This document shows, piece by piece, positions 1,192 through 10,654 of a stretch of 15,739 bases of DNA. Source of the stretch: Patescibacteria group bacterium. Lineage in GTDB: Bacteria; Patescibacteriota; Minisyncoccia; JAHIHE01; JAGLIN01. The DNA is taken from positions 1 through 15,739 of the forward strand of contig JBAXYM010000028.1 in assembly GCA_041670805.1 (NCBI GenBank), written 5' to 3'. Within the stretch, counting starts at the first letter, position 1. Each line of letters begins with the position of its first letter. The notes beneath the pieces were generated by a model. It was given only the letters and a program-made list of their open reading frames with translations, was not told the DNA's origin and did not search any database. A program made the translations under genes and the position numbers.

Positions 1192-1232
1192 TTTATCACG
1201 TGAATTTTTCTTTTTTTTATTAATAAATGTTC

Positions 1233-1287
1233 GTTTAGTTATATTTATATATTGATACTCCTAATAATATAGTATACAAAAACAAAC
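1233..1287 (+). promoter_or_regulatory. Conserved promoter-like element, copy 1: GTTTAGTTA..ATATATA..GATAC..AATAATATAGTATAC.AAAACAAAC
   Basis: An almost identical ~55-nt block recurs at 3404-3458, and a partial copy (TAATATAATATAC) at 4674-4686. Each lies in an A/T-rich gap directly upstream of a run of co-oriented genes. It is followed after a similar short spacing (about 10-16 nt) by GGTG(A/T)AAAG, then 9 nt later by an ATG. Confidence 0.55.
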
Positions 1288-1300
1288 GGTGAAAAGAAGA

Positions 1301-1498
1301 ATGGCAAAGTACACAATTACCCACGAATACCAATCTAGATTTGCATCTAGGTTTACAAAACAGAAGGCAGATGAGACCGTATATCAGCAACAATGCCATC
1401 AAATTATGATTAACGACTGGGAAAATAATATCCCTGTGGACCAGAAGAAAATGGAAAAACGAAAAGCCATCCTTGAGAAATGGAGAGAAATATTATGA
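1301..1498 (+). CDS. Hypothetical small basic protein, 65 aa from this ATG; the track calls an upstream GTG at 1289
   Basis: An ATG lies 9 nt downstream of the GGTG Shine-Dalgarno-like sequence that is conserved in the promoter-like block. The ORF ends in an ATGA overlap with the next ORF. I recognise no motif. Confidence 0.45.
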   Translation: MAKYTITHEYQSRFASRFTKQKADETVYQQQCHQIMINDWENNIPVDQKKMEKRKAILEKWREIL

Positions 1499-1725
1499 CA
1501 ACAGGATATTTTACCGTAACTGGAGATGCTAACAATTTAGTTGGGTGGACTACTGAAACATTAGCTGAGGCTCTGAGAATCCCTCTTGGAAAATTAGGTA
1601 TTGAGGTCACATGCATACCAAAGCAGTTTGGGGGCGTGTGCTATGTCCCTATAGACGATGAGACATCCCCGAGCGAAGACTACGTCCAATATGTTGTTGA
1701 GAGAGTTATTTGTCTTGGAAAGTAA
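1495..1725 (+). CDS. Hypothetical protein, 76 aa from the ATG at 1495; the track start at 1480 is also possible
   Basis: The ATG overlaps the upstream stop (ATGA) and GGAGAG lies 8-13 nt upstream. The ORF lies in the A/T-rich accessory region. No motif recognised. Confidence 0.45.
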   Translation: MTTGYFTVTGDANNLVGWTTETLAEALRIPLGKLGIEVTCIPKQFGGVCYVPIDDETSPSEDYVQYVVERVICLGK

Positions 1726-1737
1726 TGGTGGTTTGAA

Positions 1738-3342
1738 ATGACTTCTCCAATAGACTCATTTTACCCCACGCCAAAAACGCTCATCGACAAGATGCTATCT
1801 GGGATCAGTCTGACTGGGGTATATTCTATCCTCGAACCGTCTGCTGGGAAAGGCGACATTGTAGATGCACTTATCCCGAAACTGAAAGCGACATCGGGTC
1901 ATAGTTACGGGTGCGGATATGGTGAAACATACCGTCCCGACATCGACACGATAGAAATCAATCCCGACCTGCGGCACGTCTTGACCGGTAAGGGATACAG
2001 GGTTGTACACGATGACTTCCTGACATTCGAGACGTACAAGCATTACGATTTGATAATCATGAATCCTCCGTTTGCTTCGGGTGAGAAGCACTTGGAGAAG
2101 GCATTGGAACTCCAGAAAGATGGTGGTGCGGTAATCTGCATCCTCAACGCTGAAACGATTCGGAACCCTAACAACCTCACTAGAGTGAGAGTCAACGGGA
2201 TGTTAGACCAGTATGGAGCGAGCATCGAGTATCTCAGCGACGAGTTCAGGCAGGCCGAGCGGAAGACATGGGTAGAAATCGCATTAATCAAAGTCAGCAT
2301 CCCGGACGCCGATAAAGAGAGCATCATTATCAGCTCCCTGAAAAAGGTGAACGACGTTAGGATAATCCAGCCGGGAGAACCTACTGACCTGACAGAAGCG
2401 GATTACGTCAAAGCGACTATAACCCAGTTCCGGTTTGAGGCACAGGCAGGACTACAGCTGATACGGGACTACAAGAGCATGATGCCGTATCTCGCACTGT
2501 CAAAGGGTATTATCACCCTGGATTTCTACACTGAGAACAACGGTCGTAACTACCCTCCGAATGAAAACGAATACCTCAGGCGGGTCCGGGCCAAATACTG
2601 GGATACGCTGTTCCTATCCAAACAGTTCACGAAACAGTTCACGTCCAACCTCTTGAAAATATGCCATACTGATGTAGAGAGGTTGAAAGACTATGACTTC
2701 AATGAGTTCAATATAGGGGAGATCAGAATCAATCTTATCAACAAACTGACCAAAGCGACTGAGGACACAATCATTAAACTGTTCGACGAACTGTCAAACG
2801 AACATCACTGGTTCGATGAAATGTCTAAGAACATCCATTACTTCAACGGATGGAAGACCAACAAGGCGTGGATTGTTGGGAAGAAGGTAATCATCCCGTG
2901 CCATTTATATGATGTCATTGAGGATCTGCATTACTACGGAACATATGACCCTAGATTTGAGTTGTCCGATATTGAGAAAACCCTGAACTACCTGTCGAAT
3001 AAACCAAAACCGGTAGAGACCATCTACGAGGTAATAGACCGGGCACAAAAAACCCGGCAGACCCGTAATATCGAATCCCATTACTTCACGATTACGTGTT
3101 ATAAGAAGGGGACCGTGCATCTGACGTTCAAGGATGAGGAGTTACTCAAAAAATTCAACATCTTCGGAGCGCAGCATAAGGGGTGGCTGCCGCCATCATA
3201 CGGAAAGGTGGTCTATGATAACATGGAGCGGGATGAACGTGAGGTGGTTGACAGCTTCGAAGGGGAAGAGTCATACACCGAGACGATGAACAACGCGGGA
3301 TATTATTTATCCGGGGTAGAGTTATTGGATGCTGCCAAATGA
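1738..3342 (+). CDS. N6-adenine DNA methyltransferase, gamma class (TaqI/Eco57I-like), with a C-terminal domain of about 340 aa that is probably the target-recognition domain
   Basis: The N-terminus has motif X (FYPTP), motif I (ILEPSAGKGDIV) and motif IV (LIIMNPPF), in the order and spacing (X at ~10, I at ~32, IV at ~108) typical of gamma-class amino-MTases such as M.TaqI. GGTGG lies 7 nt upstream of the ATG. No nuclease domain or partner restriction endonuclease is visible. Confidence 0.85.
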   Translation: MTSPIDSFYPTPKTLIDKMLSGISLTGVYSILEPSAGKGDIVDALIPKLKATSGHSYGCGYGETYRPDIDTIEINPDLRHVLTGKGYRVVHDDFLTFETYKHYDLIIMNPPFASGEKHLEKALELQKDGGAVICILNAETIRNPNNLTRVRVNGMLDQYGASIEYLSDEFRQAERKTWVEIALIKVSIPDADKESIIISSLKKVNDVRIIQPGEPTDLTEADYVKATITQFRFEAQAGLQLIRDYKSMMPYLALSKGIITLDFYTENNGRNYPPNENEYLRRVRAKYWDTLFLSKQFTKQFTSNLLKICHTDVERLKDYDFNEFNIGEIRINLINKLTKATEDTIIKLFDELSNEHHWFDEMSKNIHYFNGWKTNKAWIVGKKVIIPCHLYDVIEDLHYYGTYDPRFELSDIEKTLNYLSNKPKPVETIYEVIDRAQKTRQTRNIESHYFTITCYKKGTVHLTFKDEELLKKFNIFGAQHKGWLPPSYGKVVYDNMERDEREVVDSFEGEESYTETMNNAGYYLSGVELLDAAK

Positions 3343-3356
3343 GGCGGTCTCCCAAT

Positions 3357-3412
3357 TACTAATTTAGTAGATATTAGTAATAGATTAGTAGTTGGTTAGT
3401 GGGGTTTAGTTA
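3357..3412. repeat. Five helically phased TTAGT(A/T) direct repeats; the first is embedded in the palindrome TACTAA-T-TTAGTA
   Basis: TTAGT occurs at 3364, 3374, 3385, 3396 and 3406, with spacings of 10, 11, 11 and 10 bp. The first unit is the perfect palindrome TACTAATTTAGTA at 3357-3369. The last unit (GTTTAGTTA) is the first part of promoter-like copy 2, and the same GTTTAGTTA opens copy 1. Confidence 0.6.
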
Positions 3413-3458
3413 CATATATATAGCGATACGTCCAATAATATAGTATACTAAAACAAAC
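3404..3458 (+). promoter_or_regulatory. Conserved promoter-like element, copy 2
   Basis: GTTTAGTTACATATATATAGCGATACGTCCAATAATATAGTATACTAAAACAAAC is near-identical to 1233-1287. It contains the 10-bp palindrome TAGTATACTA. It is followed by GGTGTAAAG and an ATG at 3478. Confidence 0.55.
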
Positions 3459-3477
3459 AAAAAAGGTGTAAAGAAAA

Positions 3478-3696
3478 ATGACCCAAACAGAATTAGACAA
3501 AATTAGCGAAATCTACGTTGAGAATCACGCAGAATTCTTAAGAGCCTGTGAAGATAATGACATGGAGGACATCAACCGTTACCGGTTAAACAAACGAACG
3601 ATCAGGAAATGCGCAAACGCATTACTTAGCACAGAAGACTGGGATGCATTTTACGCATTCACGGTAAAGGTAGATGTGAACTGGGCAGGGGATTAA
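3478..3696 (+). CDS. Hypothetical protein, 72 aa
   Basis: First gene after promoter-like copy 2. GGTG lies 9 nt upstream of the ATG. No confident motif. Confidence 0.5.
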   Translation: MTQTELDKISEIYVENHAEFLRACEDNDMEDINRYRLNKRTIRKCANALLSTEDWDAFYAFTVKVDVNWAGD

Positions 3697-3702
3697 AGGA
3701 AC

Positions 3703-4005
3703 ATGACAACTCAAATCCAGTATAACGGGGATTGCTTCACAAGCATCCTCTACCCATACTCTCAGATATGGGACAACGAGAATTCCCATATCGGGACGTC
3801 ATTCCGAAAAATGGATGAGTTTGAGTACTCCCTCCGGAACAAGATTGACACCCATGTGAAAAATGGCGAATCTGAAAAGTGTATTGTGGACTGGATCGCG
3901 TGGTATGTGTATCTGCGTATAGGGATGAATCTAACCGAAGCAGAAGCGTTCCGGTTGTCAGTATTTGGGAAGAAGTATCTTTATTCAAAGTATCAGGTGA
4001 GATGA
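3703..4005 (+). CDS. Hypothetical protein, 100 aa
   Basis: AAGGAA precedes the ATG, 6 nt after the previous stop. No motif recognised. Confidence 0.5.
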   Translation: MTTQIQYNGDCFTSILYPYSQIWDNENSHIGTSFRKMDEFEYSLRNKIDTHVKNGESEKCIVDWIAWYVYLRIGMNLTEAEAFRLSVFGKKYLYSKYQVR

Positions 4006-4093
4006 ATGAGATTATCGACATTGAGGATGGAATCAAGGCAGATGATAAAATTGAAGAGGTTGAATGCTATTTATGACAAAGAGGTAATACAAA

Positions 4094-4426
4094 ATGACTA
4101 AAAGAGAGAAAGACGCAGACATAACGATTATCATCCGAAAAGATGGTGACGCCTGGTTTGCACACGGACCATATTTCACCAATCTACAAGAAAGTGATGC
4201 CGAGTGGGGTCACACCCCAGAAGAGGCAGCGGTGAGGTATATCGTTGCTACCAAACCAAGCAGATGTGAAACATGCAAGAAATTTGAACGCCAAGATAAA
4301 ATGTTCGCTACGTATGTGTGCGTCGGTGGATTACTCGAAAATGAAAGAGTTATTGTTGATCCCCAGCGTATGGCGTGCGAAAAATGGGAGGAGCAATTAC
4401 CTACTGAGGTAGATTATGACAAATAA
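4094..4426 (+). CDS. Hypothetical protein, 110 aa. The N-terminal half resembles the HicB/UPF0150 fold pattern, and the C-terminal half has a CxxC...C...C arrangement that might bind zinc
   Basis: AGAGGT lies 9 nt upstream of the ATG. The segment ITIIIRKDGDAWFAHGPYFTNLQESDAEWGHTPEEAAVRYIVA follows the HicB-like pattern: hydrophobic strand, D-G-x-aromatic, P-x-x-P/G, then T-x-EEA-x-x-x-x-I. This is a pattern resemblance only. Confidence 0.5.
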   Translation: MTKREKDADITIIIRKDGDAWFAHGPYFTNLQESDAEWGHTPEEAAVRYIVATKPSRCETCKKFERQDKMFATYVCVGGLLENERVIVDPQRMACEKWEEQLPTEVDYDK

Positions 4427-4574
4427 CCGGGACCAAATGAAGCAGAGAATCGTTGAGATGGTTGAATCTCTGCATCCTATGTCCGATTCGTCAATAGATA
4501 ATAACAAGTTGTGGATTATCGATAGGGACTATCTCGCCAAAGTTAAGCCTTTTGAATTAAACAAAAAGTTATAA
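4416..4574 (+). CDS. Possible small ORF, 52 aa (MTNNRDQMKQRIVEMVESLHP...), absent from the ORF track
   Basis: Its ATG overlaps the end of the upstream gene in another frame. It fills the otherwise non-coding 4427-4574 stretch and ends just before the intergenic regulatory region. No motif. Confidence 0.25.
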   Translation: MTNNRDQMKQRIVEMVESLHPMSDSSIDNNKLWIIDRDYLAKVKPFELNKKL

Positions 4575-4595
4575 CCATCTCTGTTTTTCAACCTA

Positions 4596-4608
4596 TTACA
4601 AATTGTAA
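4596..4608. promoter_or_regulatory. Perfect palindrome TTACAA-A-TTGTAA, a candidate operator
   Basis: 6-bp inverted repeat with a 1-nt spacer in the intergenic region upstream of the structural operon. Confidence 0.3.
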
Positions 4609-4634: not shown

Positions 4635-4687
4635 TTGACTTGCAGGGGGTATCGCGCATATATACTTTATGGGTAATATAATATACT
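4635..4687 (+). promoter_or_regulatory. Sigma70-like promoter (TTGACT, 18-nt spacer, TATATA) followed by promoter-like element copy 3 (TAATATAATATAC, 4674-4686)
   Basis: TTGACT lies at 4635-4640 and TATATA at 4659-4664. The inverted repeat CCTGCA(4617-4622)/TGCAGG(4641-4646) overlaps the -35 hexamer. The 13-nt core motif matches copies 1 and 2 at 12 of 13 positions. It abuts the GTG start at 4688. Confidence 0.4.
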
Positions 4688-5809
4688 GTGCCTGACGAAC
4701 AAGAAGAAGCTATTTTCGGGAATACTACCTGTGTTTTCAGTAAATCAGTCGGCGCATTTTCAGACACTACTTTGCAGACCCTCGATAGGAGAGTCGGCGA
4801 CAAGAAGATAATACTAGGAAAGGATTTGTTTGCCCAGACTGTGGGCGATTGGGAAGGCATCCCAATCATCTATCAGCGTCAGGGTGTTCATCCCCTTGAT
4901 TTTGAAGGTATCGCACATAATCCAGCTGAGACTGCCAAGAAGATTGGCGGGGTCTTCGTTGGACACGTGAAGAGCCCTAGAATCGAAGTGGGAGGGCATC
5001 CCCGATTGAAGGCAACCCTCGATATCAACGACCTGTATTCCGAGATATCAGGGCTGTATAACAAAGGAGTTTTGGGGATATCATCCGCGTTCATGTCAAG
5101 GAACGACGGTGACAAGATAACTTCCCCCCCAAAACCGAACCATGTCCTCTTGTTTGAAGAAGTGATTGATAAGGTGCAACCAGGAGATCCCGGTGCATTA
5201 GTCCACACGGAAATCATGACAGAAGAAAAACCAACCAAGAAGGTAAAGATGCCTTTTGTGGAGTGGGTGCATTCGCTGGTGAAATCTGATATTGCAGAAT
5301 CTCAGAAGTCTCCCAACGTATCACATGTAGAAAATCCCCCCACCGAGACTAAAGTACCTGTAACCAATTCCGAAACAACCATGCCAGAACTAATTACCCC
5401 GGCAACCCCGGGCCAGGCAGAAGCTACACCTGAGTTAAAAACTCTCACTGAGGCTCTTGCACAGAGGGACGCTAAAATCGCAGAACTCGAGAAGACTATT
5501 GCTGACCTGAAATCTCAGGGTTCAGAAGTGAACACTCTTCGCACTGAACTTGCTCAGTATAAAGAGAAGGAAGCAGAACACAAATTCACCGCGTTCCTTG
5601 ATTCCGTCCCAGTTGGAATGAAATCCACGCCGGAACAGGTCGCTGAACTGAAACTAAAGTTCACGAGTGACCCAGCATCGCTGTTGACCAAGATCATCAA
5701 CACATACAAAGAGAGCGGAGAAACCCGCAAGGTTGGAGAACCGTTCACACACACGGAATCTCAGCCTCTTACCGGTGTTGGCGACCTTACCAAAATCCCG
5801 AGGAACTGA
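4688..5809 (+). CDS. Prohead protease (HK97 gp4/S78-like N-terminal domain) fused to a scaffolding-like coiled-coil C-terminal domain
   Basis: The N-terminal segment ~60-130 has ...GIAHNPAETAKKIGGVFVGHV... (His followed by IGxV) and ...KGVLGISSAFMS... (the G-x-S-x-x-F serine motif), which resemble the catalytic His and Ser motifs of phage prohead proteases. The C-terminal ~170 aa is rich in E/K/A/L with heptad-like stretches (AQRDAKIAELEKTIADLKSQ...), typical of scaffolds. It sits between the head-morphogenesis and capsid genes. It has a GTG start with no SD and the promoter-like motif immediately upstream, so the start is uncertain. Confidence 0.55.
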   Translation: MPDEQEEAIFGNTTCVFSKSVGAFSDTTLQTLDRRVGDKKIILGKDLFAQTVGDWEGIPIIYQRQGVHPLDFEGIAHNPAETAKKIGGVFVGHVKSPRIEVGGHPRLKATLDINDLYSEISGLYNKGVLGISSAFMSRNDGDKITSPPKPNHVLLFEEVIDKVQPGDPGALVHTEIMTEEKPTKKVKMPFVEWVHSLVKSDIAESQKSPNVSHVENPPTETKVPVTNSETTMPELITPATPGQAEATPELKTLTEALAQRDAKIAELEKTIADLKSQGSEVNTLRTELAQYKEKEAEHKFTAFLDSVPVGMKSTPEQVAELKLKFTSDPASLLTKIINTYKESGETRKVGEPFTHTESQPLTGVGDLTKIPRN

Positions 5810-6386: not shown

Positions 6387-7325
6387 ATGCCTACAATCAA
6401 CGAAACCCCGCTTACCCGTGCCGCAACCCAGATGAGCACAGAAATCATTCCTGTACTCAGAAACTCTCTTGTTGGCCGCCGGTTCATGAGCATCAACCCT
6501 TACATGAAAGGGGATGGTCTGACCAATCTAGAAGTTACTAAAATCTCTGACCTGTCGGACGCGTTTGTCCAGTATTCACTGCCAGACGGTTCGGAACATT
6601 CCGATTCACTGGTAGCATCTGCTGAAATCGTCAAAGTCCCGGTTCTGTTCAAGAACTTCTCGGTCAAGATGCAGGATATTCTCACATGGGAAAACCGTAC
6701 CGTATCCCCGGGGGCTACTAACAGCCTAGACTCTCTTACCTCTCTGACAGCGAGTCTCAAGGTAGCTGAGCAGGAAGAAGAGCTTCTGTTCAATGGCTGG
6801 AAACCCGATGGGACCACATATGCCATCAAAGGTATGAACCAGATTGCCGGAAACTCCGTTACTGGTGGGTCTATTGCAACTGCGGGAACGATGTATGGAT
6901 ACATCGGTGAAGCTATCGGTAAACTGATGGCAGATAAGGTAAAAGGTGAAGGCGATTCGTACAACCTCGCAATCACGTCCACCATCTACACGAAACTGAT
7001 CACTCGTATCATGACCAATGGTACCCCTGAAATTGAATACATCAAGAAACTGCTCGGGAACGGCAGCATCTATGTTACCGATACCCTCGCACTACAGGGA
7101 GGAAGCAGCAAGGAAGCAGCAATTGTTACCCCGGTCGATACCAGCAGGGTTCATTTCGAACTGCTGAACCCGGTCGACTACAAGATTGTTCTCGCAAACC
7201 CTGAGTTTGAAGGTCTTTCCCCGGTCAAGGGTGTGTCATACGAACTGATATCCCCATACTTCAAGCGTCTGAATTCAAGTTCATTATGTGACGCCGTCTG
7301 TAAAATTACCTCACTGGAAGTCTAG
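6387..7325 (+). CDS. Major capsid protein, 312 aa, no delta domain
   Basis: It has the strongest SD in the window: AAGGAGG 8 nt upstream of the ATG. Its size and position match an SPP1-type module: after scaffold and decoration, before the connector proteins. Family membership is not verified. Confidence 0.6.
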   Translation: MPTINETPLTRAATQMSTEIIPVLRNSLVGRRFMSINPYMKGDGLTNLEVTKISDLSDAFVQYSLPDGSEHSDSLVASAEIVKVPVLFKNFSVKMQDILTWENRTVSPGATNSLDSLTSLTASLKVAEQEEELLFNGWKPDGTTYAIKGMNQIAGNSVTGGSIATAGTMYGYIGEAIGKLMADKVKGEGDSYNLAITSTIYTKLITRIMTNGTPEIEYIKKLLGNGSIYVTDTLALQGGSSKEAAIVTPVDTSRVHFELLNPVDYKIVLANPEFEGLSPVKGVSYELISPYFKRLNSSSLCDAVCKITSLEV

Positions 7326-9989: not shown

Positions 9990-10331
9990 ATGCCCACCTA
10001 TGATTTTTCAACCGGAGAGGATGAACCAGCAATCTTTAAATTTGGGAAGGGTTCTGATACGGTAGAAGTAGACTTGACTTTTGTCTCTCCTCAGGTTGCA
10101 TTCGACTTTGTCATGTTTGTGAAAAACACCCGTGATAGAGTCAATAAAGGGGAAATCAAACAGGTAGAGGTCATGGCAGAAGCCATTGCTTTAGTTTCGA
10201 ATGGCGTCACATCCCCCCATAGTATTGACAAGGAGTGGCTCCTCAAGAACGTAAAACTAGGTCCTCTTGCGAAAGCATTTTCCGTGATATACGAGTGTGC
10301 TTCCGGGGATTCGGCGTCTGAAAAAAACTGA
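9990..10331 (+). CDS. Tail assembly chaperone, gpG-like
   Basis: 113 aa, directly between the major tail and tape measure genes. It ends ...SEKN* with an A-run slippery site just before the stop. GGTGG precedes the ATG. Confidence 0.7.
   Translation: MPTYDFSTGEDEPAIFKFGKGSDTVEVDLTFVSPQVAFDFVMFVKNTRDRVNKGEIKQVEVMAEAIALVSNGVTSPHSIDKEWLLKNVKLGPLAKAFSVIYECASGDSASEKN
10322..10328 (+). other. Slippery heptamer A_AAA_AAC for a -1 programmed ribosomal frameshift
   Basis: The X XXY YYZ motif lies in the 0 frame of the 9990 ORF, 1 nt before its stop at 10329-10331. The -1 frame has a TGA at 10319-10321 and is then open from 10322 to 10654. My visual base count of the A-run differs by one from the count implied by the provided translation, and I followed the ORF track. 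Confidence 0.6.
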
Positions 10332-10654
10332 GATTACCCTCGGCTGATTATCTGAACATAATCATCCCCGTCTGTCAGGTGTTCGGATGGACCCCCGATG
10401 AAATCAACCGGAGACTTACCTTGACTGAACTTATGATTTATCACCGTTCTGCTGTAGAATCGCAACGACGAGACCGTGAAGAAATCGCTATGCTTACGGC
10501 CATAACCATGAATGGAAAGTTAGGCGAGTATCTATCTAAGAGTAAGAGGGAAGGAAGACAGACTCCCGACCGCGTGGACGAGTCCCCTGATATTGAGGGG
10601 TTCCGGTCATTGTGCGGGGCACATTTTAAGAAATCATCATCAAAGGAGACCTAA
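10322..10654 (+). CDS. Tail assembly chaperone T-like extension, expressed as a G-T fusion by a -1 frameshift; the track shows its GTG-started part from 10379
   Basis: The frame is -1 relative to the 9990 ORF and open from the slippery site to a stop at 10652-10654, which overlaps the tape measure ATG. The predicted junction is ...SEK-K-LRLPSADYLNIIIPVCQVFGWTPDEINRR... Confidence 0.55.
   Translation, partial: KKLRLPSADYLNIIIPVCQVFGWTPDEINRRLTLTELMIYHRSAVESQRRDREEIAMLTAITMNGKLGEYLSKSKREGRQTPDRVDESPDIEGFRSLCGAHFKKSSSKET

Follow-up and report, generated by a model that had tools for sequence, protein, structure and literature searches.

Near-identical copies of a 55-nt element stand before two gene runs in contig JBAXYM010000028.1 (assembly GCA_041670805.1), which is deposited as Patescibacteria group bacterium. 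What signal does the element carry, and which transcription machinery reads it? We analysed the whole 15,739-nt stretch, hereafter 'the window'. From its open reading frames (ORFs), protein family scans and a homologue search, the window is the morphogenesis module of a tailed virus. A preliminary description, drawn from the letters of the window, had taken the element to be a promoter-like signal at operon starts, possibly read by a phage-directed polymerase or sigma factor. Our analysis points elsewhere for the reader. The element is probably an archaeal core promoter of the methanogen type, joined to a short mRNA leader, that heads accessory or early cassettes.

The two copies, at positions 1233-1287 and 3404-3458, form an ungapped direct repeat. 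They agree at 47 of 55 positions, and no other repeat in the window comes close. When the window was shuffled 12 times with its dinucleotide composition preserved, the best match over 55 nt reached 32-34 positions. A 15-nt core, AATAATATAGTATAC, is exact in both. Both copies are intergenic and each is followed by GGTG, 9 nt and ATG. From the end of the element, the GGTG Shine-Dalgarno (SD) sequence lies 0 nt (copy 1) or 6 nt (copy 2) away, and the ATG 13 or 19 nt away. The near identity and the short run to an SD and a start codon are thus much as the preliminary description had them. The distance from element to SD varies, while that from SD to ATG is fixed at 9 nt. Hence, the SD would guide translation, and the transcript must start on its 5' side. 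The two copies and their parts are as follows; TFB is transcription factor B.

1205-1218, plus strand: T5-C-T8 run, 14 nt past the stop codon of a MuF-like gene (433-1191); no hairpin; archaeal-type, terminator-like.
1233-1287, plus strand: copy 1 (c1), predicted promoter-leader element.
1235-1243, plus strand: TTAGTTATA block directly 5' of the TATA box; putative TFB-recognition element (BRE) position or regulator site.
1244-1251, plus strand: predicted TATA box TTTATATA of c1, the same as the methanogen 'A box'.
1263-1277, plus strand: core of c1; putative AT-rich proximal promoter element and initiator, with a predicted start at A1274, 22 nt past the TATA box.
1288-1291, plus strand: GGTG SD of c1, +15 to +18 from the predicted start; then 9 nt and ATG 1301.
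3404-3458, plus strand: copy 2 (c2), with predicted TATA box TATATATA at 3415-3422, core at 3434-3448, palindrome TAGTATACTA at 3442-3451 and predicted start A3445.
3465-3468, plus strand: GGTG of c2; then 9 nt and ATG 3478.

Is the element confined to these two sites? Longer contigs of the same virus were found by exact-protein look-up. They measure 38-46.5 kb and are 99.9-100% identical to the first 5 kb of the window. Two of them, L029 and L038, together supply ~33 kb of unique sequence, and ~7 kb of the virus genome lies outside the recovered sequence. A search of the recovered genome yielded four further members, c4 to c7, all outside the window, making a family of at least six. An identity scan located c4 in a 67-nt gap before an ArdC-N-like gene (L029 4131). 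A weight matrix was then built from c1, c2, c4 and two orthologues, and run on both strands of L029 and L038. It gave 49 bits for c5 (L038 22078) and 38 bits for c6 (L038 20846). Both were absent from the training set, and each directly precedes a small ORF. No other site reached 18 bits on either strand of the two contigs, except the AT-rich reverse complement of c1. The last member is c7, a minus-strand copy placed back to back with plus-strand c6 (L038 20801-20911). The divergent c6/c7 layout resembles a genetic switch region.

Throughout the ~33 kb, all six members are intergenic and oriented toward the next ORF. Rather than being equally frequent in coding regions, the motif has no member inside one, as befits a promoter-like signal placed where operons begin. 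Members c1, c2 and c5 have the exact core, and c7 matches it at 14 of 15 positions; the octamer TAGTATAC is confined to these four members. Orthologous elements occur in two diverged relatives: after the MuF-like gene in L001 (capsid 62% identical to that of the window) and before the first gene of a four-gene cassette in L036 (capsid 56% identical). Both orthologues keep the TATA box, the spacing and CTAATATAT. The element was not found in the more distant relatives L003, L049, L050, L035 and L007, and an exact-pattern scan of IMG/VR for core plus leader gave 0 matches. A reading as an iteron, origin or packaging signal was rejected, since every copy points toward and abuts an ORF.

The geometry of the element is informative. 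We aligned seven sequences (c1, c2, c4-c6 and the two orthologues; c7 was omitted) on the AT-rich octamer, giving alignment A3. Conservation comes in blocks. The longest uninterrupted invariant one is the octamer, whose T-A-x-A-T-A positions are unchanged in all seven sequences, and the octamer fits TWTATATA throughout: TTTATATA in c1 and L036, TATATATA in c2 and c6, AATATATA in c4, ATTATATA in c5 and c7, and TTTAAATA in L001. Directly 5' of it, TTAGT(T/A)A(C/T), hereafter TTAGTWAY, is kept in c1, c2, c4 and c5. A spacer of ~9 nt is variable. On its 3' side come CCAATAATATAGT, a purine, TAC, the A-rich run AAAACAAAC with a variable number of A residues, GGTG(A/T)AA and the ATG. The GGTG ribosome site is present in five of the six members. 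A T-purine step falls exactly 22 nt past the octamer in c1, c2, c4-c6 and both orthologues, and 23 nt past it in c7.

Mapped promoters of Methanocaldococcus jannaschii have the TATA box TWTATATA, a pattern described as methanogen-confined; the distance from TATA box to start is 23±2 nt in 94% of cases, starts are A or G, proximal promoter (PPE) and initiator (Inr) elements are present, and the SD lies at +14 to +19 (PMC2699501). The viral elements share the TATA octamer (TTTATATA or TATATATA), the 22-23 nt to a T-preceded purine and the AT-rich proximal region; their SDs would fall at ~+15 to +24, in an unstructured leader. This match in TATA box, spacing, predicted start residue and SD position argues for an archaeal promoter. 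The two sets also differ. The viral -14 to +10 segment is far more uniform among copies than in cellular promoters, the block at the BRE position is not purine-rich, and the viral starts are predicted rather than mapped. We found no promoter survey for Methanomicrobiales in the literature.

The layout of c7 bears on the start site. Its ATG lies 4 nt past the predicted start and opens a 49-aa ORF missed by gene callers. Since this ATG directly follows ATAC, the ORF is translatable only from a transcript that begins at ATAC or no more than a few nt away. Hence, c7 offers independent support for predicted initiation at the ATAC motif. A structured RNA was also considered. The predicted leaders fold no better than shuffles (z = +0.58 for c1 and +0.47 for c2), the element itself does not fold stably (z = +1.0 and -0.2) and it has no match in Rfam. 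An RNA element or riboswitch was rejected on these grounds.

We propose the following mechanism. The host TATA-binding protein (TBP) and TFB would bind the TATA box together with the TTAGTWAY block. Archaeal RNA polymerase would thereby be positioned to initiate 22 nt further on, at the purine (A1274 in copy 1, A3445 in copy 2). The AT-rich proximal element and initiator would be CCAATAATATAGT|ATAC. The unstructured A-rich leader, AAAACAAAC, would then run into the GGTG ribosome site. Each unit would start an accessory or early-type cassette, and the pair in the window would act as self-contained units inside the morphogenesis cluster. Near-consensus host-type promoters would suit these cassettes, because their functions would be needed early or continuously, before any viral factor exists.

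Could a viral factor read the element instead, as the preliminary description suggested? The high uniformity of the family is a trait of promoters for phage polymerases, and ~7 kb of the genome escaped the scan. In the scanned proteins of the ~33 kb recovered, there is no member of an RNA polymerase, sigma, TBP or TFB family. The element also fits the host-type methanogen consensus in sequence and spacing, and the genes it would drive are of the early type, which need expression before any viral factor. Hence, a promoter for a virus-encoded RNA polymerase, or for a viral sigma or TFB-like specificity factor, is highly improbable.

The structural operon of the same window provides a comparison. 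The features upstream of it are listed below.

4596-4608, strand not assigned: palindrome TTACAAATTGTAA, between the T-run that ends the second cassette and the structural promoter; candidate operator.
4643-4652, plus strand: CAGGGGGTAT, predicted element 5' of the TATA box in the structural (late) promoter; spans -45 to -36 relative to the GTG.
4658-4665, plus strand: ATATATAC, predicted TATA box for the structural operon; 22 nt separate it from GTG 4688.
4672-4686, plus strand: GGTAATATAATATAC, the claimed third copy of the element, with 3 mismatches to the core.
4688-5809, plus strand: scaffold/protease-like gene, the first of the structural operon; GTG start, probably leaderless.

The 22 nt before GTG 4688 contain no SD, and an M-P-D N-terminus is conserved from the first codon in six orthologues. 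In eight orthologous promoters, 18-22 nt separate the TATA box from the start codon (21-22 in L018, L020 and L007; 18-20 in L036, L035 and L001). The CAGGGGGTAT (CAGGGG) element is kept in L018, L020, L035 (twice), L049, L036, L001, L007 and L048. Because it is conserved even where the TATA box has decayed, we suggest that it is an activator site. The TTACAAATTGTAA palindrome occurs once in the window, and as two copies 32 nt apart in L018 and L020. From these signals, the structural operon uses a predicted promoter class separate from the 55-nt element, made up of CAGGGGGTAT, a TATA box and a leaderless GTG. Conserved GTG or ATG codons without an SD, 18-22 nt past a TATA box, are a further argument for archaeal transcription signals in this virus.

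The preliminary description had counted three copies of the element, the third abutting this GTG. Two are real. The third, at 4672-4686, is an AT-rich stretch of the different promoter described above, and we rejected it as a family member. Chance predicts 0.47 sites per window that differ from the core at up to 3 positions. In a MAFFT alignment, the site needs an 8-nt gap to come into register with the TATA box. Nor is it conserved; the same position reads CAGCCCCCATGTAGATAT in L018 and GGGACATAGTATTATCTT in L020, both close relatives.

Which host do the relatives of the virus indicate? The only named homologues of the capsid are in Methanocorpusculum sp. metagenome-assembled genomes (MAGs), where portal relatives are found too. 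A related sequence (capsid 54-55% identity, portal 47%) occurs in three assemblies labelled Methanocorpusculum, on contigs of 73-81 kb, and looks like a provirus remnant. In this relative (L048 1-6000 and L007 6300-11000), the portal is inverted with respect to the capsid cluster, and the remnant abuts chromosomal genes. The remnant on L048 adjoins SecD and SecF genes that pass NCBIfam models NF006217 and NF006354, the next-best match for SecF being a haloarchaeal model; a family-B DNA polymerase (PolB) gene is also beside it. No host genes were found in the L007 flanks. The host gene mdh on L048 has the layout of the structural operon: CTTATATC, 22 nt and an ATG without an SD. These relatives and the remnant beside archaeal genes support the archaeal promoter reading, as do the mdh layout and the bare, terminator-like T-runs without hairpins. 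The host of the virus itself is probably in Methanomicrobiales, judged from its relatives and signals.

Neither the window DNA nor the capsid protein had a match in a collection of deposited phages, and the terminase matched only distant bacterial phages. IMG/VR capsid-based scans returned relatives at 28-34% identity only.

Several observations weigh against an archaeal promoter. The TTAGTWAY block has no clear match to the published purine-rich BRE. Identity among c1, c2 and c5 from -14 to +10 goes beyond the needs of a core promoter, and probably reflects something more, such as an operator, a leader function or recent copying. Every start site is a prediction. The geometry is also compatible with a weak sigma-70 promoter: TTTATA-18-TATAGT matches at 9 of 12 positions in c1, and TTTAAA-17-TATAAT at 10 of 12 in L001. 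Contigs of the exact virus (L029, L043 and others) are in MAGs named 'Patescibacteria group bacterium' and 'Candidatus Nanoarchaeia archaeon', and the closest isolate terminases, at 46.7% identity, are those of Synechococcus phages. An archaeal host is inferred from relatives and from the signals themselves, and is not established. Finally, the unrecovered ~7 kb could encode a transcription factor.

Part of this list would suit a bacterial sigma-70 phage promoter, for instance in a Patescibacteria host, with TATAGT as the -10 element and TTTATA or TATATA as a poor -35 element. The scan match in c1, the one Patescibacteria label and the bacterial origin of the nearest isolate terminases all speak for it. 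The rest of the family does not follow. The TTG of a -35 element is absent in four of the five plus-strand copies (c2, c4, c5 and c6), c2 was not called by the scan, and c4 and c6 have no -10-like hexamer. The invariant block is the upstream octamer, not the -10 element. In L018 the late promoter has no -10-like hexamer before the leaderless GTG, while its TATA box is kept at 21-nt spacing. Hairpin terminators are lacking at the cassette ends. The same virus also bears the Nanoarchaeia label, so the bins are unreliable; evidently, the viral contig contaminates them. Relatives are integrated beside archaeal genes. Hence, we regard a sigma-70 promoter as improbable. The preliminary description was right that the core is no obvious sigma-70 pair, only c1 being called; what it did not see is that the geometry fits an archaeal TATA box, 22-23 nt and a purine start.

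The excess identity around the predicted start raises a further question: does the archaeal promoter also carry an operator? The sequence 5' of copy 2 is relevant here.

3364-3410, plus strand: five direct TTAGT units (starts at 3364, 3374, 3385, 3396 and 3406), 10-11 nt apart; the last unit is inside c2.

Five of the 17 TTAGT sequences in the window fall within these 47 nt, directly 5' of copy 2, and they recur once in each helical turn. An inverted ACTAA is at 3358, upstream of the array, and c5 (L038 ~22078) is preceded by two TTAGT units 10 nt apart. The array could be a candidate regulator-binding site. A palindrome in the element had also been pointed out. It is perfect in copy 2 (TAGTATACTA); copy 1 reads TAGTATACAA, and neither c4, c6 nor the two orthologues keep it.

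On this basis, the host-type promoter may be combined with an operator for a virus-encoded regulator that switches the whole cassette regulon. The candidate regulator would be a small winged-helix protein (L029 2499-2720), and its sites the TTAGT units and the -14 to +10 block, with the GTATAC palindrome over the start. Such a regulator would account for identity among c1, c2 and c5 beyond basal needs, for phased TTAGT units at c2 and before c5, and for the switch-like c6/c7 pair. The ORF resembles TrmB-like winged helix-turn-helix proteins (E = 4e-5), a match that is below the Pfam cut-off (23.8 versus 25.6 bits). In archaea, repressors often occupy the TATA box, the start site or the DNA just downstream of either. 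A precedent is known in SSV1, whose early promoters have tandem repeats bound by the repressor F55. There too, short direct repeats phased by ~11 bp are found at TATA-box promoters of an archaeal virus; the sequences and the virus type are unrelated, and binding in the present case is hypothetical. The palindrome is perfect in c2 only, and the TTAGT array is present at c2 and, weakly, at c5. Thus, we put forward the operator tentatively, as an addition to the archaeal promoter and not a replacement for it.

What do the promoters head? In the window, the end of the portal gene is followed by the MuF-like head protein gene (433-1191), small ORFs, a DUF4942 methyltransferase-like gene (1738-3342), further small ORFs, the scaffold/protease-like gene (4688-5809), an HK97/encapsulin-like capsid gene (6387-7325) and then tail genes, tape measure and Dit. 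The units behind c1 and c2 are these.

1301-3342, plus strand: cassette 1, with a 65-aa ORF, an 81-aa ORF and the DUF4942 DNA methyltransferase-like gene.
3478-4574, plus strand: cassette 2, with small ORFs of 72, 100, ~31, 110 and 52 aa; no family match.
4584-4588, plus strand: T5 run that follows the final stop codon in cassette 2; a T6 run in L018 and L020; terminator-like.

Both are poor in GC. The small-ORF part of cassette 1 has a GC fraction of 0.363 and the methyltransferase 0.47; cassette 2 has 0.405. Overall, cassette GC is 0.363-0.443, against 0.49-0.50 in the flanks. A scan for hairpin terminators found none at the cassette ends, where there are bare T-runs only, and not at every copy; such runs also end cassettes in the relatives L001, L018, L020, L035 and L036. 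Across the virus genome, the six units head an ArdC-like antirestriction gene, two small ORFs with the methyltransferase-like gene, five ORFans, a small ORF with a tRNA array, and two further small ORFs. The tRNA genes, six or more, lie at L038 21254-22062, downstream of c6 and ~5.5 kb past the end of the window. They comprise Gly-TCC, Leu-TAG, Ser-TGA, Leu-CAA and Leu-TAA, with one gene detected by Rfam only (21417-21475).

The interval between the MuF-like and scaffold genes differs in content in every relative examined. It holds two ORFs in L001, four in L036, other ORFs in L020 and L035, a glycosyltransferase gene in L003 and L050, and only non-coding DNA in L049. In L001 and L036, it opens with the orthologous element. 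Each of the two copies in the window heads one cassette inserted in this variable hotspot. Phage 'morons', described by Hendrix and colleagues, are autonomous promoter-gene-terminator units inserted between conserved genes. Cassettes 1 and 2 would behave in the same way, as self-contained transcription units with a predicted promoter and terminator, because the interval varies among relatives and the GC content is below that of the flanks. Like morons, they stand between head genes that are adjacent, or differently filled, in relatives, and have T-run boundaries. Unlike morons, their transcription signals are of the archaeal type.

Another bacterial system offers a closer parallel. T4-type promoter early stem-loop units (PeSLs) are sigma-70 promoters joined to a stem-loop terminator (PMC2839356, PMC4122927). 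Both PeSLs and the present units are short, repeated and placed before nonessential ORFan cassettes in variable regions, with strong early promoters of the host type; here, the promoter is of the archaeal TATA type and there is no stem-loop. Might the units, besides acting as promoters, be portable regulatory cassettes, the archaeal analogue of PeSLs, that provide homology patches for the gain, loss and shuffling of accessory genes? The changing content of the hotspot and its opening with an orthologous element in L001 and L036 are in favour, as is the low GC of the cassettes. Similarity among copies is also mosaic: c1 is like c2 in its 5' half and c4 is like c5, while c1 and c5 share an identical GGTGAAAAGAAGAATGGCAAA that runs into unrelated ORFs. 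The stem-loop terminator component is missing, six copies are a small number, and all close genomes retrieved are 99.9-100% identical across this region, so that recombination between copies is not observable among them. We consider this additional role rather unlikely. With little confidence, the ideas of switching and shuffling might be joined. The units would then be portable promoter-leader modules, forming one regulon under a viral DNA-binding protein and serving as homology patches that shuffle cassettes into hotspots; this would be an archaeal counterpart of the T4 PeSLs built on TATA-box signals.

Among archaeal viruses, a close likeness is in HGTV-1, a haloarchaeal tailed virus in which a conserved TATA-like motif with an inverted repeat precedes many ORFs (Sencilo et al., 2013, as described in PMC3950731). 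As far as that description goes, the two viruses share tailed morphology, a repeated TATA-like motif before small ORFs, a tRNA cluster and a proposed role of the motif in transcription and gene shuffling. By the same account, HGTV-1 has the motif at most ORFs of a genome arm, against six copies here, and its TATA flavour is haloarchaeal, against methanogen in our case. In the present virus, a 10-bp palindrome is found in one copy and there is no stem-loop.

TATA-box promoters in front of accessory cassettes are a known kind of signal in archaeal viruses, and this family is probably another example; current understanding is not overturned. The repeat family is real and its promoters at operon starts were correctly sensed in the preliminary description, but the domain of life was probably misassigned. 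Very few promoters of methanogen viruses have been described and, to our knowledge, none for viruses tied to Methanomicrobiales. The family is a ready set of predicted strong, compact promoter-leader units of ~70 nt that could be tested as expression parts in methanogens. For this virus group, of which only metagenomic sequences are known, the predicted promoters can be mapped to two classes: those of the accessory/early cassettes and that of the late operon, with its CAGGGG element and leaderless start. Transcription signals alone can also flag an archaeal host when MAG labels disagree.

Other features of the virus genome deserve mention. Both GGTG and GGAG SDs are common in it; for this reason, the type of SD was rejected as a marker of host domain. 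A reverse transcriptase gene (RVT_1) is found amid tail-fibre genes at L038 16034-17008, and also at L003 18203-19402, which suggests a diversity-generating retroelement. On the 3' side of the ArdC-like gene, 425 nt (L029 4531-4955) are non-coding. A C-rich tract, CCTCCCCCTATGCCCCCCTTTTGAATCCCCCTCTCACCCCCC, T-runs and several TATA-like boxes lie in this region, which might serve as an attachment site, an origin or a cos/pac site; a similar long gap is present in L049 and L050. Lastly, two small ORFs at 9990-10654 of the window are directly 5' of the tape measure gene, the usual place of frameshifting tail-assembly chaperones.

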